From Escherichia coli (GTDB taxonomy: Bacteria > Pseudomonadota > Gammaproteobacteria > Enterobacterales > Enterobacteriaceae), in assembly GCF_003019035.1 (NCBI RefSeq), contig NZ_CP027447.1: 64,000 nucleotides of DNA. One strand, given 5' to 3'. The notes below the pieces were generated by a model. That model made no database searches, was not told where the DNA came from, and worked only from the letters and a program-made list of their open reading frames with translations. Each line of letters starts with the position of its first letter. The first letter of the stretch is position 1. This document shows positions 25,190 to 49,506 of the stretch, piece after piece. Position numbers and translations under genes: made by a program.

Positions 25190-26443
25190 ATGCTGGAACA
25201 AATGGGCATTGCCGCGAAGCAAGCCTCTTATAAATTAGCGCAACTCTCCAGCCGCGAAAAAAATCGTGTGCTGGAAAAAATCGCCGATGAACTGGAAGCA
25301 CAAAGCGAAATCATCCTCAACGCTAACGCCCAGGATGTTGCTGACGCGCGTGCCAATGGCCTTAGCGAAGCGATGCTTGACCGTCTGGCACTGACGCCCG
25401 CACGGCTGAAAGGCATTGCCGACGATGTGCGCCAGGTGTGCAATCTCGCCGATCCGGTGGGGCGGGTAATCGATGGCGGCGTACTGGACAGTGGCCTGCG
25501 TCTGGAGCGTCGTCGCGTACCGCTGGGGGTTATTGGCGTGATTTATGAAGCGCGCCCGAACGTGACGGTTGATGTCGCTTCGCTGTGCCTGAAAACAGGT
25601 AACGCAGTGATCCTGCGCGGCGGCAAAGAAACGTGTCGCACTAACGCGGCAACGGTGGCAGTGATTCAGGACGCCCTGAAATCCTGTGGCTTACCGGCGG
25701 GTGCCGTGCAGGCGATTGATAATCCTGACCGTGCGCTGGTCAGTGAAATGCTGCGTATGGATAAATACATCGACATGCTGATCCCGCGCGGCGGGGCTGG
25801 TTTGCATAAACTGTGCCGCGAACAGTCGACAATTCCGGTGATCACTGGTGGTATAGGCGTATGCCATATTTACGTTGATGAAAGCGCAGAGATCGCTGAA
25901 GCATTAAAAGTGATCGTCAACGCGAAAACTCAGCGACCGAGCACATGTAATACGGTAGAAACGTTGCTGGTAAATAAAAACATCGCAGATAGCTTCCTGC
26001 CCGCATTAAGCAAGCAAATGGCGGAAAGTGGCGTGACGTTACACGCAGATGCTGCTGCGCTGGCGCAGTTGCAGGCAGGCCCCGCGAAGGTGGTGGCTGT
26101 TAAAGCCGAAGAGTATGACGATGAGTTCCTGTCATTAGACTTGAACGTCAAAATTGTCAGCGATCTTGACGATGCTATCGCCCATATTCGTGAACACGGC
26201 ACGCAACACTCCGATGCGATCCTGACCCGCGATATGCGCAACGCCCAGCGTTTTGTTAATGAAGTAGATTCATCCGCTGTTTACGTTAACGCCTCTACGC
26301 GTTTTACCGACGGCGGCCAGTTTGGACTGGGCGCGGAAGTGGCGGTAAGCACACAAAAACTCCACGCGCGTGGCCCGATGGGCCTGGAAGCACTGACCAC
26401 TTACAAGTGGATCGGCATCGGTGATTACACCATTCGTGCGTAA
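25190..26443 (+). CDS. proA: Gamma-glutamyl phosphate reductase
   Basis: 417-aa ORF matching E. coli ProA. Confidence 0.95.
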
Positions 26444-26557: not shown

Positions 26558-26633
26558 GCCGATATAGCTCAGTTGGTAGAGCAGCGCATTCGTAATGCGA
26601 AGGTCGTAGGTTCGACTCCTATTATCGGCACCA
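26558..26633 (+). tRNA. thrW: tRNA-Thr (CGT anticodon)
   Basis: 76-nt sequence GCCGATATAGCTCAGTTGGTAGAGCAGCGCATTCGTAATGCGAAGGTCGTAGGTTCGACTCCTATTATCGGCACCA with cloverleaf pairing and CCA end; downstream of proA. Confidence 0.9.
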
Positions 26634-26647
26634 TTAAAATCAATAAG

Positions 26648-27811
26648 TTACACATCATTAGTACCTTCCTTATTTTTTGACTGGGACAAATTTGGGACCG
26701 ATGGGTTCAGGATCGAGTCTATTTGCCGTGCGTGTTCGGTAAGGTGATTAGGTGCAAGGTGAGCATATCGACGAACCATTTCGATAGACTCCCAGCCTCC
26801 CATTTCCTGTAACACTGACAACGGGACTCCGGCTTGAACCAGCCAACTTGCCCAGGTGTGTCTCAAGTCGTGAAATCTGAAATCATCAATACCAGCCCGT
26901 CTCAGCGCCGCTTTCCAGGCTGTGTTTGCGTCATACCGCATCTTCCTTACTGTTGGCGCTTTCGTTCCGTCTGGTTTGGTACAGCTTTCCTTGTACACAA
27001 ATACCCAACGGTGATGATTCCCGATTTGTTTTTTCAATACGCGACATGCAGTATCATTCAGCGCAACGCCAATTGCGCGGTTTGATTTACTCTCTTCCGG
27101 GTTTATCCATGCCACCCGGCGCTGCATATCTATTTGTTGCCATTCAAGGTTGATGATGTTCGAGCGTCTTAAGCCTGTTGCCAGTGCAAATTCAACAACA
27201 GACTTTAATGGCTCCGGACATTCATCAATCAGCCTTTGTGCTTCATGGGGTTCCAGCCAGCGGATCCGTTTATTCTTTGGTTGAGGCACTTTAATAATTG
27301 GTGCCTTATCCAGCATTTTCCATTCACGCTCTGCGGCTCTTAGTAGGGCCTTTATAAATGAAAGATGCGTAGCCTTCGTTGCAACGGACGCTGGTTTTGG
27401 CGTGTATTCTGGAACAGGTTTCCCTTTTTTTCTGCATGCTTCTGCCCTGAGTTTCCAGTTTTCCTCATGACGCCGGTTCGTCATTTTCTGCATTGCTGAA
27501 TAAATTTTTGATTCAGTAATGTCTCTTAGTTGCATTCCTGCGAAATGTTGAAGCCAGAATCCGATCCGGCTTTTGTCATCGTCCAGTGATTTTTTATGTG
27601 CTTTCTCTTCAAGCCACCTGACACACGCTTCCTCGAACGTTATATCAGGTATTTCACCAAGTTTGCTGACCCGCCATGCTTCGGCCTTTAGCTTGTCATG
27701 GAGTTCTGTCGCCTGCCTTTTGTCCTTTGTTCCAAGAGACTGTTTAAATCTTTTACCGTTCGGCAATGTGAAACTGGCGTACCATATTTCACCTCTGCGG
27801 AAGAGTGACAT
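26648..27811 (-). CDS. int: Tyrosine integrase (P22-like)
   Basis: 387-aa ORF closely resembling P22 Int from memory ([41 protein letters not shown]...); C-terminal catalytic motifs HDLRHTWAS and VRRYAHL. Confidence 0.9.
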
Positions 27812-40548: not shown

Positions 40549-41601
40549 ATGAAAAATACTGTAAAAATAAACAGTGTTGATTTAATCAACGCTGATTGCC
40601 TGCATTTTATTCAGTCCCTGCCTGATGATTCCATTGACCTGATTGTTACCGATCCGCCTTACTTCAAGGTGAAACCTAACGGTTGGGACAATCAGTGGAA
40701 AGGGGACGAAGATTACCTTAAGTGGCTGGACCACTGTCTGGCCCAGTTCTGGCGGGTGTTAAAACCTGCCGGAAGCCTTTACCTGTTCTGTGGGCATCGC
40801 CTGGCATCTGATATTGAGATCATGATGCGTGAACGTTTCAACGTGCTTAACCATATCATCTGGGCGAAGCCGTCCGGACGTTGGAATGGGTGTAATAAAG
40901 AAAGTCTGCGCGCATATTTTCCTGCCACAGAGCGCGTTCTGTTTGCTGAACATTACCAGGGGCCATATCGCGGCAAAAGTGACGGCTATGCGGCAAAAGA
41001 AAGGGAACTCAAACAGCACATAATGGCACCGCTGATATCGTATTTCAGGGATGCTCGTGCCGAACTGGGTATAACGGCAAAACAAATTGCCGAAGCCACA
41101 GGTAAGAAAAATATGGTTTCCCACTGGTTTGGTGCCAGTCAGTGGCAGTTGCCGAATGAGGCTGACTATCGGAAGTTACAGGCACTGTTTTCCCGTATAG
41201 CGGCAGAGAAGTTTCAGGAACAACAACTGGAACAACCACACCACCAGCTGGTGGCATCTTATGATTCACTGAATCGCAAATATTCTGAATTGCTGGATGA
41301 GTTTAAATCTCTCCGGCGCTATTTCTCCGTATCAGTCTCCGTGCCTTATACCGATGTCTGGACGCATAAGCCCGTTCAGTTCTACCCGGGTAAACATCCG
41401 TGCGAGAAACCGGCGGATATGCTCCGGCAAATAATCAATGCCAGTAGTCGACCTGGTGATCTGGTTGCTGATTTCTTTATGGGATCCGGTTCCACAATAA
41501 AAGCAGCAATGGCGCTGGGGCGTCGGGCGTTAGGTGTTGAACTTGAGTCAGAGCGGTTTAATCAGACGGTGAAAGAGGTAAGTGAACTGGTGGGGAAATA
41601 A
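40549..41601 (+). CDS. DNA methyltransferase (N6-adenine / N4-cytosine class, DPPY motif), orphan
   Basis: 350-aa ORF; catalytic motif IVTDPPYF near N-terminus and AdoMet-binding-like C-terminus (DLVADFFMGSGST); no adjacent restriction gene recognised. Confidence 0.8.
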   Translation: MKNTVKINSVDLINADCLHFIQSLPDDSIDLIVTDPPYFKVKPNGWDNQWKGDEDYLKWLDHCLAQFWRVLKPAGSLYLFCGHRLASDIEIMMRERFNVLNHIIWAKPSGRWNGCNKESLRAYFPATERVLFAEHYQGPYRGKSDGYAAKERELKQHIMAPLISYFRDARAELGITAKQIAEATGKKNMVSHWFGASQWQLPNEADYRKLQALFSRIAAEKFQEQQLEQPHHQLVASYDSLNRKYSELLDEFKSLRRYFSVSVSVPYTDVWTHKPVQFYPGKHPCEKPADMLRQIINASSRPGDLVADFFMGSGSTIKAAMALGRRALGVELESERFNQTVKEVSELVGK

Positions 41602-43106: not shown

Positions 43107-43427
43107 ATGAAAGACGGCATTTATTTTGTTGTGTTCAGAAGCGGTCATAATGATGTTGGCAATGGCACGGTCGTTGTGAAGGATAATGCGGTTAATGGTG
43201 GTGATTTTGGGTTTACCTATCAGGGGCGTGTACAAGATGGGGTATTGAAACTTCATGTATCCCGCCATAACCCTTCAGCACAAAACGTTATTGCAGGCCT
43301 TAACGATTATGTGATGGATCTCTCTGTGAGAGATATTGGGGATGGTTATTACCTTGAAGGTGGAATTGCTGGTGTTCCTGGTGCGACTCTGTCTGTACAG
43401 GCGAAATTTATCGGCAATTTGATTTAA
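43107..43427 (+). CDS. Hypothetical protein (106 aa)
   Basis: ORF-track; Gly-rich; position after the lysis cassette. Confidence 0.4.
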   Translation: MKDGIYFVVFRSGHNDVGNGTVVVKDNAVNGGDFGFTYQGRVQDGVLKLHVSRHNPSAQNVIAGLNDYVMDLSVRDIGDGYYLEGGIAGVPGATLSVQAKFIGNLI

Positions 43428-43522: not shown

Positions 43523-43873
43523 ATGCCCCCACGAACCCCAAAAGCCTGCCGTGTTCGCGGCTGCCGCCATACCACCACTGACCCGTCAGGCTATTGCGAA
43601 AGCCACAAAAGCGAAGGCTGGAAGCAATACAAACCTGGACAATCCCGTCATCAGCGCGGCTACGGTTCGAAGTGGGACAGTATCCGCGCGCGTGTCCTGA
43701 AGCGTGACAAAGGCCTGTGTCAGTTATGTCTGCGTTCTGGTGTGGTGCGTGAGGCGAAAACTGTTGACCACATCATCCCTAAAGCGCATGGCGGCACTGA
43801 TGCTGACAGTAATCTGCAGAGTCTGTGCTGGCCGTGCCATAAGGCGAAGACGACCCGTGAACGGTTAAAGTGA
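43523..43873 (+). CDS. HNH endonuclease (terminase-associated)
   Basis: 116-aa ORF; Cys-rich zinc-finger-like N-terminus; HNH motif (VDHIIPKAHGGTDADSNLQSLCWPCH); directly upstream of terminase genes. Confidence 0.8.
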   Translation: MPPRTPKACRVRGCRHTTTDPSGYCESHKSEGWKQYKPGQSRHQRGYGSKWDSIRARVLKRDKGLCQLCLRSGVVREAKTVDHIIPKAHGGTDADSNLQSLCWPCHKAKTTRERLK

Positions 43874-43998
43874 TAATAATTCTCAACTGTCTGAGGGGAG
43901 GGGCGGGTCAAATCCCTGTGACCTGACGTCTTCCGGACTGCCCGCCCCATCGTTTTTTTATACCCGCGAAAAATGAAATTTAACCAGGAGTGCCGCAT

Positions 43999-44493
43999 AT
44001 GGCTGGAACGACGGGGCGTTCCGGGCGTCGCCCCAAGCCAACGGCGCGCAAGGCGCTGGCCGGAAATCCCGGCAAGCGAGCCCTGAACAAAGATGAACCT
44101 GTTTTTACGCCCATCAAAGGTGTTGAGCCACCGGAGTGGTTCGCTGAAGAAGATCTCCCTCTCGCCACGATCATGTGGCAACTGACAACCAAAGAACTCT
44201 GCGGTCAGGGCCTGCTGTGCGTGACTGACCTCGCGGTGCTTGAGCGGTGGTGCGTGGCCTACGAGTTCTGGCGGCGTGCCGTGAAAAATATTGCCAGACA
44301 GGGCAACACCATCACCGGTGCAATGGGTGGCATGGTCAAAAATCCGGAGCTGACCGCCAAGAAAGAACAGGAGTCCGAGATGAGCAGCACGGGGGCAATG
44401 CTCGGACTCGACCCCAGCATCCGCCAGCGTCTGATTGGCCTGGCGGGGCAGAAGAAAGCCACTAACCCGTTTCTGAAAATCATCGAATCATGA
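43999..44493 (+). CDS. Terminase small subunit
   Basis: ORF-track 43990..44493; ATG at 43999 with AGGAG RBS; basic N-terminus; precedes large terminase with overlapping stop/start. Confidence 0.7.
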
Positions 44494-46223
44494 GCCGGAA
44501 ATCTTACCCCAACGTAAATGCTGCCAATCAGTATGCCCGGGATGTCGTGCGCGGAAAGATTGTGGCCTGCCAGTTTGTGATTCAGGCCTGCCAGCGCCAT
44601 CTTGATGACCTGATGGCGGAAAAAAGTAAGTCGTTTCGTTACCGCTTCGACAAGGACCTGGCTGAACGGGCCGCGAAATTTATTCAGCTGTTGCCACACA
44701 CCAAGGGGGAGTGGGCATTCAAGAGGATGCCCATCACGCTGGAACCGTGGCAGCTCTTTGTGATCTGCTGTGCGTTTGGCTGGGTCAATAAAGGCTCCCG
44801 GCTGCGCCGCTTCAGGGAGGTGTATACCGAAATCCCCCGTAAGAACGGCAAATCGGCAATCTCTGCCGGTGTTGCCCTGTATTGTTTTGCCTGTGATAAC
44901 GAGTTTGGCGCGGAAGTGTATTCCGGTGCCACGACAGAGAAACAGGCGTGGGAAGTCTTTCGCCCGGCGCGACTGATGTGTAAACGCACACCCATGCTGA
45001 CGGAAGCGTTCGGGATTGAGGTTAACGCCTCAAACATGAACCGTCCGGAGGATGGCGCGCGGTTTGAACCGCTGATCGGTAACCCCGGTGATGGTTCATC
45101 ACCCCACTGTGCCGTGGTGGATGAATATCACGAGCACGCCACCGATGCGCTTTATACCACGATGCTTACCGGGATGGGCGCGCGACGTCAGCCACTGATG
45201 TGGGCCATTACTACTGCCGGGTACAACATTGAGGGGCCGTGCTACGACAAGCGGCGGGAAGTTATCGAGATGCTCAACGGGTCGGTACCCAACGATGAAC
45301 TGTTCGGGATCATCTATACCGTTGATGAAGGTGACGACTGGACCGACCCGCAGGTGCTGGAAAAAGCCAATCCAAATATTGGCGTGTCGGTTTATCGCGA
45401 ATTTTTGTTAAGTCAGCAGCAGCGTGCGAAAAATAACGCCCGTCTGGCAAACGTCTTTAAAACAAAACACCTCAATATCTGGGTGTCGGCGCGTTCGGCG
45501 TATTTCAACCTGGTGAGCTGGCAGAGCTGCGAGGATAAATCACTGACCCTTGAGCAGTTCGAGGGGCAGCTGTGCATTCTGGCCTTTGACCTGGCGCGTA
45601 AGCTGGATATGAACAGCATGGCGCGACTTTATACCCGCGAGATTGACGGTAAAACGCATTACTACAGTGTGGCCCCGCGTTTCTGGGTACCGTATGACAC
45701 GGTGTACAGCGTCGAGAAAAATGAAGATCGACGGACAGCCGAACGCTTTCAGAAATGGGTGGAAATGGGCGTTCTGACCGTTACCGATGGTGCGGAGGTG
45801 GATTATCGCTATATCCTCGAGGAGGCCAAAGCGGCGAACAAAATCAGCCCGGTCAGTGAGTCACCCATCGACCCCTTCGGGGCGACCGGGTTGTCACATG
45901 ACCTTGCTGATGAAGACCTGAATCCCGTCACTATCATTCAGAACTACACCAACATGTCCGACCCGATGAAAGAGCTGGAAGCGGCAATTGAATCGGGGCG
46001 CTTTCATCATGATGGCAATCCCATCATGACCTGGTGTATCGGCAACGTGGTCGGCAAAACCATTCCGGGTAACGATGATGTGGTGAAGCCCGTCAAAGAG
46101 CAGGCGGAAAACAAAATCGATGGTGCAGTTGCGCTGATTATGGCGGTTGGCAGAGCCATGCTGTACGAGAAAGGAGACACGTTGTCTGACCACATTGAGT
46201 CCTATGGGATCCGCTCGCTTTAA
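44490..46223 (+). CDS. Terminase large subunit
   Basis: 577-aa ORF; ATPase and nuclease-like regions; typical size and position. Confidence 0.9.
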
Positions 46224-46234
46224 CTGAGGTAATT

Positions 46235-46417
46235 ATGATCATGCTGATTCTCGCGCCTCTGGTGGGCGTGCTGGGGGCGCTTTTGCTGGCGTATGGTGCC
46301 TGGCTGATTTATCCCCCGGCGGGGTTTGTTGTTGCCGGGGCGTTGTGCCTGTTCTGGTCGTGGCTGGTGGCGCGATATCTTGACCGTACACAGTCGTCTG
46401 TCGGCGGAGGTAAATAG
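46235..46417 (+). CDS. Small hydrophobic protein (60 aa)
   Basis: ORF-track; two hydrophobic helices; between terminase and portal. Confidence 0.35.
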
Positions 46418-47658
46418 TGTTCTTTTCGGGATTATTTCAACGAAAAAGTGACGCACCGATGACCACGCCAGCAGAGCTGGCGGAGGCTATCGGGTTGTCC
46501 TACGACACCTATACCGGAAAGCAGATCAGCAGCCAGCGGGCCATGCGACTGACGGCGGTTTTTTCCTGTGTCAGGGTGCTGGCGGAGTCGGTCGGGATGT
46601 TGCCCTGCAACCTGTATCACCTGAACGGCAGCCTGAAGCAGAGAGCCACTGGCGAACGTCTGCATAAGCTGATCTCCACGCATCCCAATGGCTATATGAC
46701 GCCGCAGGAGTTCTGGGAGCTGGTGGTCACCTGTCTGTGCCTGCGGGGAAACTTTTACGCCTACAAAGTGAAAGCATTTGGCGAAGTGGCTGAACTGCTG
46801 CCCGTCGATCCCGGCTGTGTGGTACCGAAGCTTAACAGTAGCTGGGAGCCGATCTATCAGGTCACATTCCCGGATGGCTCCACGGATGTACTGAGCCAGG
46901 AGGATATCTGGCATGTGCGCACGCTGACGCTGGACGGACTGGTGGGGCTGAATCCCATCGCCTATGCCCGCGAGGCAATATCGCTGGCAGCTGCGACCGA
47001 AGAGCACGGGGCCAGACTGTTCAGCAATGGCGCGGTGACGTCGGGTGTGTTGCGTACAGAGCAGACGCTGTCAGATCAGGCTTATGAGCGCCTGAAGAAA
47101 GATTTTGAGGAGCGTCACACCGGGCTTGGCAATGCTCACCGCCCGATGATCCTTGAGATGGGGCTGGACTGGAAGTCGATGGCGCTGAACGCCGAGGACA
47201 GCCAGTTCCTGGAAACCCGCAAGTTTCAGCTTGAAGAAATCTGTCGTCTGTTCCGGGTGCCGTTGCACATGGTGCAGAACACCGATCGCGCCACCTTCAA
47301 CAATATCGAAGAGCTGGGGCTGGGATTTATCAACTATTCACTGGTGCCGTATCTGACCCGCATCGAACAGCGGATCAACACCGGACTGGTACGAAAAAGT
47401 AAGCAGGGCGTTTATTACGCCAAATTTAACGCCGGGGCGTTACTGCGCGGGGATATGAAGTCCCGTTTTGAAGCCTACGCCACCGGGATCAACTGGGGAA
47501 TTTACTCTCCCAATGACTGCCGCGACCTGGAAGATATGAATCCGCGTCCCGGTGGTGATGTCTATCTCACACCGATGAACATGACCACGAAACCCTCCGA
47601 TGGCAGTAAAGCCGGTAAGCAGAAGGATAACGCCAATGCAGACGAAACAACGTCTTGA
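46417..47658 (+). CDS. Portal protein (HK97-family-like)
   Basis: 413-aa ORF; GTG start with GGAGG RBS (alternative ATG at 46459); position and size. Confidence 0.8.
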   Translation: MFFSGLFQRKSDAPMTTPAELAEAIGLSYDTYTGKQISSQRAMRLTAVFSCVRVLAESVGMLPCNLYHLNGSLKQRATGERLHKLISTHPNGYMTPQEFWELVVTCLCLRGNFYAYKVKAFGEVAELLPVDPGCVVPKLNSSWEPIYQVTFPDGSTDVLSQEDIWHVRTLTLDGLVGLNPIAYAREAISLAAATEEHGARLFSNGAVTSGVLRTEQTLSDQAYERLKKDFEERHTGLGNAHRPMILEMGLDWKSMALNAEDSQFLETRKFQLEEICRLFRVPLHMVQNTDRATFNNIEELGLGFINYSLVPYLTRIEQRINTGLVRKSKQGVYYAKFNAGALLRGDMKSRFEAYATGINWGIYSPNDCRDLEDMNPRPGGDVYLTPMNMTTKPSDGSKAGKQKDNANADETTS

Positions 47659-48286
47659 TGTACCGCTGAGTCTGAAATCTGTCAGTGACTCCGGTGAGTT
47701 TGAAGGGTATGGCTCCGTCTTTGGTGTAAAGGACAGCCACGATGATGTGGTGATGTCCGGGGCATTTGCTGCTTCCCTGCGGGCGTGGAGTGACAGAAAA
47801 GCGTTACCTGCGCTGCTCTGGCAGCACCGCATGGATGAACCCATCGGTGTTTACACCGAAATGAAGGAAGACGATGTCGGGCTTTACGTCAGGGGACGGT
47901 TGCTTATTGATGATGATCCCCTCGCAAAACGCGCACATGCACACATGAAGGCCGGTTCGTTAACCGGCCTTTCTATTGGGTACGTCCTGAAAGACTGGGA
48001 ATACGACCGGAGCAAAGAAGCCTTTCTGCTGAAAGAAATCGACCTCTGGGAAGTCAGCCTGGTGACGTTCCCGTCTAACGACGAGGCGCGGATCAGCGAC
48101 GTCAAGAACGCACTGGCCCGCGGGGAAATCCCCGAACAGAAAAAAATCGAAAGAGTCCTGCGTGATGTCGGACTCTCCCGTACCCAGGCCAAAGCATTCA
48201 TGGCCGGGGGCTATGGCGCACTGTCCCTGCGCGACGCTGAGGATGTGGGCTCTGCACTGAATGCACTGAAAAATCTGAACTTCTAA
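47636..48286 (+). CDS. Prohead protease (HK97-family-like)
   Basis: ORF-track 47600..48286; ATG at 47636 with AGAAGGA RBS; between portal and major capsid. Confidence 0.75.
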   Translation: MQTKQRLDVPLSLKSVSDSGEFEGYGSVFGVKDSHDDVVMSGAFAASLRAWSDRKALPALLWQHRMDEPIGVYTEMKEDDVGLYVRGRLLIDDDPLAKRAHAHMKAGSLTGLSIGYVLKDWEYDRSKEAFLLKEIDLWEVSLVTFPSNDEARISDVKNALARGEIPEQKKIERVLRDVGLSRTQAKAFMAGGYGALSLRDAEDVGSALNALKNLNF

Positions 48287-48300
48287 TCAGGAGAAATACG

Positions 48301-49506
48301 ATGGCGGTTGATATTAAAGATGTCGAACAGGTCGCGCAGGAGCTGCAGCAGAAGTTTGACGACTTCAAAGCAAAGAACGACAAGCGCGTGGATGCGATTG
48401 AGCAGGAAAAAGGCAAGCTTGCCGGGCAGGTGGAAACCCTGAACGGGAAACTCAGCGAGCTGGAAAATCTCAAAAGCGACCTTGAAAAAGAGCTGCTTGA
48501 GCTGAAACGTCCGGCTGGTGGAGCGCAAAATAAACTGGCCACCGAGCATAAAGAGGCGTTTGTGGGCTTCCTGCGTAAAGGCCGTGAAGACGGTCTGCGC
48601 GATCTGGAGCGTAAGGCATTGCAGGTGGGTACCGATGAAGACGGTGGCTACGCCGTGCCGGAAGAACTGGATCGCAACATTCTTAACCTGCTGAAAGATG
48701 AAGTGGTGATGCGTCAGGAAGCCACGGTGATCACCGTTGGCGGTTCCGACTACAAAAAACTGGTGAATCTGGGCGGTACGGCTTCCGGATGGGTGGGGGA
48801 AACGGATACGCGATCCCAGACTGCCACCTCCAGACTGGAGCTGATTGAACCTCTCATGGGGGAAATCTACGGCAACCCGCAGGCTACCCAGAAAATGCTG
48901 GACGATGCCTTCTTCAACGTGGAGGCCTGGATCAACAGCGAGCTGGCAACCGAATTTGCCGAACAGGAAGAAATTGCCTTTACCTCAGGCGATGGCACCA
49001 AGAAGCCGAAAGGGTTCCTGGCGTATGAATCCACTGATGAAACCGACAAGGTCCGGGCGTTCGGCAAACTTCAGCATATTGTATCTGGCGAAGCGACCGC
49101 GGTGACCGCAGACGCCATTATCAAACTGATTTACACGCTGCGTAAGGCACACCGCACTGGCGCGAAGTTCATGATGAACAACAACAGCCTGTTTACCATC
49201 CGTCTGCTGAAAGACACCGAGGGTAACTATCTGTGGCGTCCGGGGCTGGAACTGGGGCAGCCGTCCTCTCTGGCGGGTTACGGTATCGCTGAAAACGAAC
49301 AGATGCCGGATATCGCCGCTGATGCGAAAGCCATTGCATTTGGTAACTTCAAACGGGGTTACACCATCGTTGACCGTATCGGTACCCGCATTCTTCGCGA
49401 TCCGTACACCAATAAACCGTTTGTCGGTTTTTATACCACCAAGCGCACCGGCGGCATGCTGGTCGATTCGCAGGCCATCAAACTGCTGAAGATTGCTGCG
49501 GCGTAA
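48301..49506 (+). CDS. Major capsid protein (HK97-fold)
   Basis: 401-aa ORF; N-terminal coiled-coil delta-domain-like region followed by capsid body; position. Confidence 0.85.
   Translation: MAVDIKDVEQVAQELQQKFDDFKAKNDKRVDAIEQEKGKLAGQVETLNGKLSELENLKSDLEKELLELKRPAGGAQNKLATEHKEAFVGFLRKGREDGLRDLERKALQVGTDEDGGYAVPEELDRNILNLLKDEVVMRQEATVITVGGSDYKKLVNLGGTASGWVGETDTRSQTATSRLELIEPLMGEIYGNPQATQKMLDDAFFNVEAWINSELATEFAEQEEIAFTSGDGTKKPKGFLAYESTDETDKVRAFGKLQHIVSGEATAVTADAIIKLIYTLRKAHRTGAKFMMNNNSLFTIRLLKDTEGNYLWRPGLELGQPSSLAGYGIAENEQMPDIAADAKAIAFGNFKRGYTIVDRIGTRILRDPYTNKPFVGFYTTKRTGGMLVDSQAIKLLKIAAA

Follow-up and report, generated by a model that had tools for sequence, protein, structure and literature searches.

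A probable cos packaging site of the SfV/SfI/phiP27 type in an Escherichia coli prophage, and its conserved modular architecture

The intergenic segment between the HNH endonuclease and small terminase genes of the prophage described here is, judging from sequence comparison, very probably the cos site of a temperate phage of the SfV/SfI/phiP27 type that is integrated at thrW. In the window, by which we mean the whole 64,000-nt stretch of DNA that was analysed, this segment spans positions 43874-43998 (125 nt), which is exactly the gap between the HNH stop codon (43871-43873) and the small-terminase ATG at 43999. The assignment is based on the identity of a 10-mer and its flanks to the mapped cos of phage SfI, on the gene context, and on the pattern of conservation among related phages. 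A candidate cos region placed between these two genes had been proposed from the letters of the sequence alone; the placement is borne out by the gene coordinates, and the cos interpretation is supported by a core that matches the cos determined on DNA from SfI virions, together with the gene order. The site as such is an already known feature of an ordinary and very common type, its cos region being present in 1222 of 5426 complete E. coli genomes. The only lead of wider interest lies in the conserved modular architecture of the region and in a hypothesis as to which nuclease cuts which strand. The features discussed below are collected in Table 1.

Table 1. Features of the predicted cos region and of the adjoining packaging and head genes (window coordinates)
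Feature	Coordinates	Strand	Description
HNH endonuclease gene, 116 aa	43523-43873	+	PF01844, E 1.6e-16; N-terminal zinc ribbon and HNH domain
AT-rich box TGATAATAATTCTCAACTG	43871-43889	.	Overlaps the HNH stop codon; possible accessory site
G-block GAGGGGAGGGGCGGG	43893-43907	+	Holds the left repeat arm (43900-43907)
TCAAATCCCT motif	43908-43917	+	First T lies 31 nt before the first overhang base
Spacer, 17 nt	43918-43934	.	Variable in sequence, fixed in length
GGAC	43935-43938	+	Directly 5' of the overhang; 0/4 columns variable among 58 relatives
Predicted 10-nt cohesive end TGCCCGCCCC	43939-43948	+	Equals the SfI cos gap; right repeat arm lies inside
Seven-T run	43953-43959	+	Positions +5 to +11 from the predicted top-strand nick; cosB-like region
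26-nt block ATACCCGCGAAAAATGAAATTTAACC	43960-43985	+	Predicted small-terminase recognition site
Shine-Dalgarno AGGAG	43986-43990	+	8 nt before the ATG at 43999
Small terminase gene, 164 aa, P27 family	43999-44493	+	PF05119, E 4.9e-20
Large terminase gene, 577 aa, HK97 type	44490-46223	+	PF03354, PF20441; 6z6d (HK97 TerL), E 2e-25
Portal	46417-47658		PF04860
S78 prohead protease	47600-48286		PF04586
Major capsid, HK97 type	48301-49506		TIGR01554, E 2.3e-114

Results and discussion

Identity of the cohesive end

The DNA of free SfI particles has been subjected to run-off sequencing primed from within the HNH and terminase genes and compared with the prophage, which revealed a 10-nt gap, 5'-TGCCCGCCCC-3', from which packaging by cos was concluded (PMC3636060). 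The same decamer occurs once in the 64,000-nt window, and over 43893-43948, which runs from the start of the G-block through the last overhang base, only a single base differs from SfI. The deposited SfI record ends with the last base of TGCCCGCCCC and restarts at the next base. Against phage records (megablast), the region is 95-98% identical to SKA5, SfV, SfII, SfIV and SfI, and the latter four share with the window the gene order, the thrW/proA site and an identical cohesive end. SfV and SfII display 97-99% identity over the TerS-side intergenic part, which is the stretch covered by those records, whereas SfI differs in the 19 nt right after the HNH stop codon, a difference without material bearing on the comparison. 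The deposited SfV sequence begins at window position 43932, 7 nt ahead of the overhang, and the cos of SfV was postulated, not mapped (PMC3636060).

Deposited records of more distant phages fall into the same register. The 10-nt cos-site annotated in the GenBank record of phiP27, CGCCCGCCCC, aligns at the homologous position and in the same register; the records of HK97 and SfI end after the overhang, that of the Pseudomonas phage PP9W2 ends 10 nt after AC^ (^ marking the boundary or cut), and that of the Proteus phage Pm34 breaks exactly at GGAC^CGCCCCCTTA. The record of the Burkholderia phage PR2b ends 12 nt after GGAC.

Gene neighborhood and prophage context

The segment is embedded in the order HNH - cos - small terminase (TerS) - large terminase (TerL) - portal - protease - HK97-type capsid, with all genes intact. 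The HNH protein gives a full-length match to the HNH protein of Geobacillus virus E2 (PDB: 5h0m, E 8e-12), is 94% identical to SfV orf53, and retains the catalytic residues, its Cys/His zinc ligands, D82-H83, N97 and H106 being invariant in the HNH alignment. The small terminase scores 71.6 bits against TIGR01558 (cutoff 45.6), which places it in the P27 family, and its start matches that of SfV orf1. The arrangement had been described as typical of HK97-like cos packaging modules; this description stands for TerL, portal, protease, capsid and HNH but fails for the small terminase, which is of the P27 family and is not detectably related to HK97 gp1. Consistent with this, BLASTP comparison with gp1 gave only E values above 7, a PDB search with the small terminase recovered no match to HK97 TerS, and gp1 itself is not a member of PF05119.

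The prophage lies at a tRNA-Thr(CGU) gene (26558-26633, thrW) adjoining proA (25190-26443), with its integrase gene at 26648-27811 on the minus strand; thrW/proA is the integration site of SfI, SfII, SfIV, SfV and SfX (PMC3636060). Two further genes upstream of the packaging module deserve mention on their own account. A 106-aa ORF between the lysis genes and the HNH gene (43107-43427), possibly a moron gene, shows a sub-threshold Pfam match to GrlR, a regulator of type III secretion (24.1 bits against a cutoff of 26.8), and its homologue is named 'GrlR family regulatory protein' in RefSeq. Upstream of the lysis cassette, a gene for a 350-aa DNA adenine methyltransferase is found at 40549-41601; a paper on Serratia phages placed the phiP27 homologue of such a methyltransferase in a relaxed-specificity group.

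A conserved architecture in fixed register

We compared the segment with the corresponding loci of HK97, phiP27, phi467, mEp235, four Klebsiella phages, Proteus Pm34, Vibrio K303, Moraxella Mcat12, Pseudomonas SC_8 and PP9W2, and Burkholderia PR2b, as well as with 80 IMG/VR loci found via the HNH alignment. When anchored on TCAAATC, the compared loci align without gaps as a succession of G-block, TCAAATCCCT, 17-nt spacer, GGAC, 10-nt overhang and downstream block. Column variability was determined over 58 unique close relatives whose small terminase is of the window's type, and the resulting profile is strongly partitioned: besides the invariant GGAC, a single column out of 10 varies in the overhang and none of 26 in the block at 43960-43985, while 13 of the 17 spacer columns and 15 of the 19 columns that follow the HNH stop codon, that is the AT-rich box, are variable. 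Across all families compared, the tetramer before the overhang takes the form NNAC, and the left boundary of the overhang is kept as AC^YG, with the right boundary varying.

The upstream element is widespread and is common to phages of any small-terminase type. The G-block reads GGGG.GGGG.GGG in 16 representatives of diverse origin, among them HK97 and Moraxella, Pseudomonas and Vibrio phages, and the G-block/TCAAATC combination extends over HK97 and over phages of Proteus, Klebsiella, Vibrio, Pseudomonas, Moraxella and Burkholderia. The 31-nt register is the same in the window, SfI, phiP27, HK97, phi467, mEp235, the Klebsiella phages, Pm34 and Mcat12, with a shift by one base in a few phages. 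A pattern scan of IMG/VR viral contigs for GGTCAAATC followed, after a gap of 8-34 nt, by GACYGCC returned 120 matches, of which 55 had a gap of 21 and comprised 35 distinct spacers, each other gap accounting for 1-6 matches; G-rich sequence upstream was seen only in the gap-21 class, which corresponds to the cos spacing. Boxes resembling the AT-rich one (TGAKAAYNRWTNNCAYYTG) lie ahead of the G-block, at distances that vary, in HK97 (about 664-682 of locus L004), mEp235 (L011), phiP27, Pseudomonas SC_8 and the Klebsiella phages.

The element occurs with three small-terminase types and with HNH proteins that have or lack the zinc ribbon, which points to the large terminase as its putative reader. 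Inspection by eye of the TCAAATC region showed no match to the IHF consensus. We found no description of the G-block/TCAAATC element in the searchable literature, several key papers being outside its reach, and querying full texts with the motif strings brought up primer noise only.

Several observations on the distribution of these motifs are recorded here. Extra TCAAATG copies are present upstream in HK97 and mEp235, and in some Klebsiella phages the AT-rich box lies within a palindrome, TCAAATGA-N9-TCATTTGA. The Serratia phage Swain encodes a related HNH protein at its right end, without the G-block motif. In the Vibrio phage Len (L015, 601-1440) the HNH gene ends at 960 and TerS starts at 967, leaving 6 nt between them; no G-block/TCAAATC motif is found between the two genes, so the packaging site must be elsewhere in that phage. 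In the Geobacillus phage PK3.6, the HNH stop codon is immediately followed by GGGGCGG-TC, and ACCG is found at offsets 28-31 from the T of that TC, the same offset as in the Pseudomonas phages; the record does not end at ACCG and the match may be due to chance, but if real it would mean that this cos architecture reaches phages of Firmicutes.

The inverted GC repeat and the terminator reading

The original prediction had drawn attention to two inverted GC blocks followed by a T-run. The right block, CCCGCCCC (43941-43948), and the run of seven T are as described; the left block, GAGGGGCGGG, is correct in sequence but occupies 43898-43907, its start having been placed one base too late at 43899. 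A repeat finder identifies GGGGCGGG (43900-43907) and CCCGCCCC as a perfect 8-bp inverted repeat with 33 nt between the arms. Thus, the repeat itself is real, although its interpretation as a functional inverted-repeat unit does not hold. Perfect inverted repeats of 8 bp or more arise in 174 of 2000 (8.7%) dinucleotide-preserving shuffles of the 125-nt segment, so the repeat alone is not beyond chance; what does exceed chance is the conservation across phages, each GC block being kept separately in many of them. In HK97, the Klebsiella phages and the phi467-type phages the right block reads CCGCCGCC, which breaks the repeat with both blocks still in register, and in two variant loci (L082 and L083) both arms are altered without compensation, indicating that the arms do not covary. 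Taken together, the sequences suggest that the two blocks do not form one unit, the right one being part of the cohesive end and the left one belonging to a separate upstream element.

A G+C-rich repeat followed by a T-run might be read as a Rho-independent terminator of the lysis and HNH genes, acting either as the sole function of the segment or besides cos. This reading could draw on the perfect 8-bp G+C stem, on the seven T downstream of it and on the pairing of the two blocks in the RNA fold (minimum free energy -28.8 kcal/mol). However, the geometry is not that of a terminator, with a loop of 33 nt where about 3-8 nt is expected and a 4-nt gap separating the stem from the T-run, and a terminator scan made no call here. 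The fold is likewise unexceptional (z = -1.33, with 25 of 200 shuffles at least as stable), as is a repeat of this stem length. The absence of arm covariation, and the relatives that lack the repeat but keep both blocks in register, also argue against it. In lambdoid phages late transcription reads through cos, from the lysis genes into the head genes, and a terminator at this point would lie in the path that such transcription has to take. We therefore consider the terminator reading highly unlikely. Judging from its conservation, the T-run is better regarded as part of the conserved downstream region, probably the small-terminase site, than as a terminator tail.

Two other interpretations were dropped. 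A symmetric protein-binding site is at odds with the center of the repeat (about 43924), which does not coincide with that of the overhang, and with the loss of the repeat where both blocks persist. An RNA element was set aside after Rfam and tRNA scans of the region returned nothing relevant and no Rfam family match.

That this copy has no packaging role, the prophage being a headful (pac) type or a decayed remnant with a chance repeat, is scarcely credible: the repeat is indeed not significant by itself and the virion ends were mapped in the relative SfI, the assignment for this copy coming from sequence, but the core is identical to the cos mapped on SfI virions, TerL is of the HK97, cos type, packaging and head genes are full-length throughout, and GGAC, the overhang and the downstream block are under strong constraint across the 58 relatives.

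The downstream block and the small terminase

The interpretation of the segment as cos also offers a role for the sequence between the overhang and the Shine-Dalgarno motif. A (T/A) tract is kept at the position of the T-run in SfV-type, phiP27-type, Pseudomonas and Moraxella relatives. The block that follows it varies in step with the small terminase: TTTTTTTATACCCGCGAAAAATGAAATTTAACC or close variants accompany small terminases with a basic N-terminal arm, GR(S/G)(G/R)RKPKP, a combination seen in the window, phiP27, the Klebsiella phages, Pseudomonas SC_8 and Moraxella Mcat12, while MSGPPKTP-type small terminases go with a different block, CGCATCGCCGCAGGTTCGAAAACTTTTTTTT, and HK97 represents a third type. 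The block of the window is thus replaced in HK97, and it is also replaced in phi467-type phages. The HK97 small terminase binds CTAACCCGATTTTTT at +15 to +29, which consists of ACCCG plus an A/T tract; it makes a base-specific contact in ACCCG and requires the A/T tract (PMC11331095). In the window, ACCCG occupies +14 to +18, and a stretch of five A covers +21 to +25. Since the block type tracks the small-terminase type and resembles the HK97 site in its ACCCG and A/T composition, we predict that 43953-43985 is probably the binding site of the small terminase, a prediction by analogy and not by homology, as the small terminases of HK97 and the window display no detectable similarity.

Polarity of the ends and assignment of the nicks

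The SfI run-off experiment produced a gap and not an overlap, which implies recessed 5' ends and hence 3' overhangs, and HK97 has 10-nt 3' overhangs (PMC9410871). By the SfI method and by analogy with HK97, the overhang of the window would thus be a 3' one, and the nicks would fall between 43938 and 43939 on the bottom strand and between 43948 and 43949 on the top strand. The same paper has 10-nt 3' overhangs for HK97 in a figure legend but '12-nt 3' overhangs' in its Discussion, and it lists lambda as '10-nt 5'' (PMC9410871).

If the overhang is 3', the context of the bottom-strand nick is CG^GT in HK97 and phiP27, and CA^GT in the window. Xu and Gupta described nicking at CG^GT by the HNH proteins of Geobacillus virus E2 and phage gamma, which they did not link to cos (PMC3592412). 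The conservation of AC^YG and the fit of CR^GT to the specificity of these homologous HNH nickases suggest that the HNH protein might make the bottom-strand nick. This strand assignment is weak, because HK97 gp74 and other packaging HNH proteins have been reported to be non-specific on their own. An earlier published proposal had one nick made by HNH and the other by TerL, and structural work on HK97 left the assignment of strands to nucleases open (PMC11331095).

Combining these elements, one may tentatively envisage the G-block/TCAAATC element as an undescribed cosQ-like subsite, located three helical turns from the bottom-strand nick and read by TerL or HNH, with HNH nicking the bottom strand at AC^YG, in agreement with the CG^GT specificity of its Bacillus and Geobacillus homologues, and TerL cutting the top strand 10 nt away. 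We regard this combined scheme as possible but rather doubtful in its entirety, and the likeness of the element to lambda cosQ would be one of position.

Comparison with known cos systems

With the Stx2e phage phiP27, which serves as type phage for the P27 family of small terminases, the window shares the G-block/TCAAATCCCT element, the 31-nt register, GGAC, a 10-nt overhang, the ACCCGCGAAA downstream block and the family of the small terminase. phiP27 differs in an overhang that starts with C rather than T, in the sequence of the spacer, in an HNH protein that is 79% identical, and in the N-terminus of the small terminase.

HK97 shares with the window the order HNH (gp74) - cos - TerS (gp1) - TerL (gp2), a homologous TerL, a G-run with TCAAATC exactly 31 nt upstream, and the left overhang boundary, which reads AC^CG. 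Its 10-nt 3' overhang and its small-terminase site downstream of the cut, with ACCCG and an A/T tract, have counterparts in the window, where the 3' polarity is inferred and the small-terminase site predicted. In contrast, gp1 has no detectable similarity to the small terminase of the window, gp74 is devoid of the N-terminal zinc ribbon and shows 38% identity in an alignment limited to 65 aa, and HK97 has another downstream element and no 8-bp inverted repeat.

The cos of lambda has 12-nt 5' overhangs and is cut by the gpNu1/gpA terminase with no need of an HNH protein. Its cosQ-cosN-cosB organization resembles the window in logic, with a nick site, a small-terminase site on the first-packaged side and a conserved upstream element on the last-packaged side. 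There are differences as well: the 12-nt 5' overhang of lambda stands against the 3' overhang implied by the SfI run-off gap, and the terminase subunits encoded here fall into PF05119 and PF03354/PF20441, the lambda-type gpNu1 and gpA families not being found among them.

A model for packaging

The above features are compatible with a model in which the P27-family small terminase would bind the concatemer just downstream of the cut, at the T-run and the ACCCGCG-AAAAA block (43953-43985), and would recruit the HK97-type large terminase. The large terminase and the adjacent HNH protein would then introduce two nicks 10 bp apart, at 43938/43939 on the bottom strand and 43948/43949 on the top strand, yielding 10-nt 3' cohesive ends with the sequence TGCCCGCCCC. 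Packaging would proceed rightward from the terminase genes and stop at the next cos. There the G-block/TCAAATC element lies 31 bp, or about three helical turns, upstream of the bottom-strand nick; of the conserved elements it would be packaged last, and it probably helps to position the nuclease in a cosQ-like manner.

Modularity of the cos region and its implications

Mosaic relatives illustrate how the parts of the region have been exchanged. In two IMG/VR loci (L095 and L096) a phiP27-like HNH tail is joined to an SfV-type spacer and overhang, after which either a phiP27-type or an SfV-type small terminase follows; other mosaics combine an CGCCCGCC overhang with a phi467-type downstream block. 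Such mosaics suggest that the lysis/HNH and terminase modules are joined by recombination at the cos region.

For the prophage itself, which is of a type very common in enterobacteria, the site would define both termini, left and right, of the genome that is packaged, and the packaging module is intact by appearance. On the whole, the cos region appears to be modular, with a shared upstream element and nick site in fixed register, an exchangeable downstream block that follows the type of the small terminase, and recombination joints at cos. This modularity leads to testable predictions on the pairing of proteins with subsites in HNH-dependent terminases.
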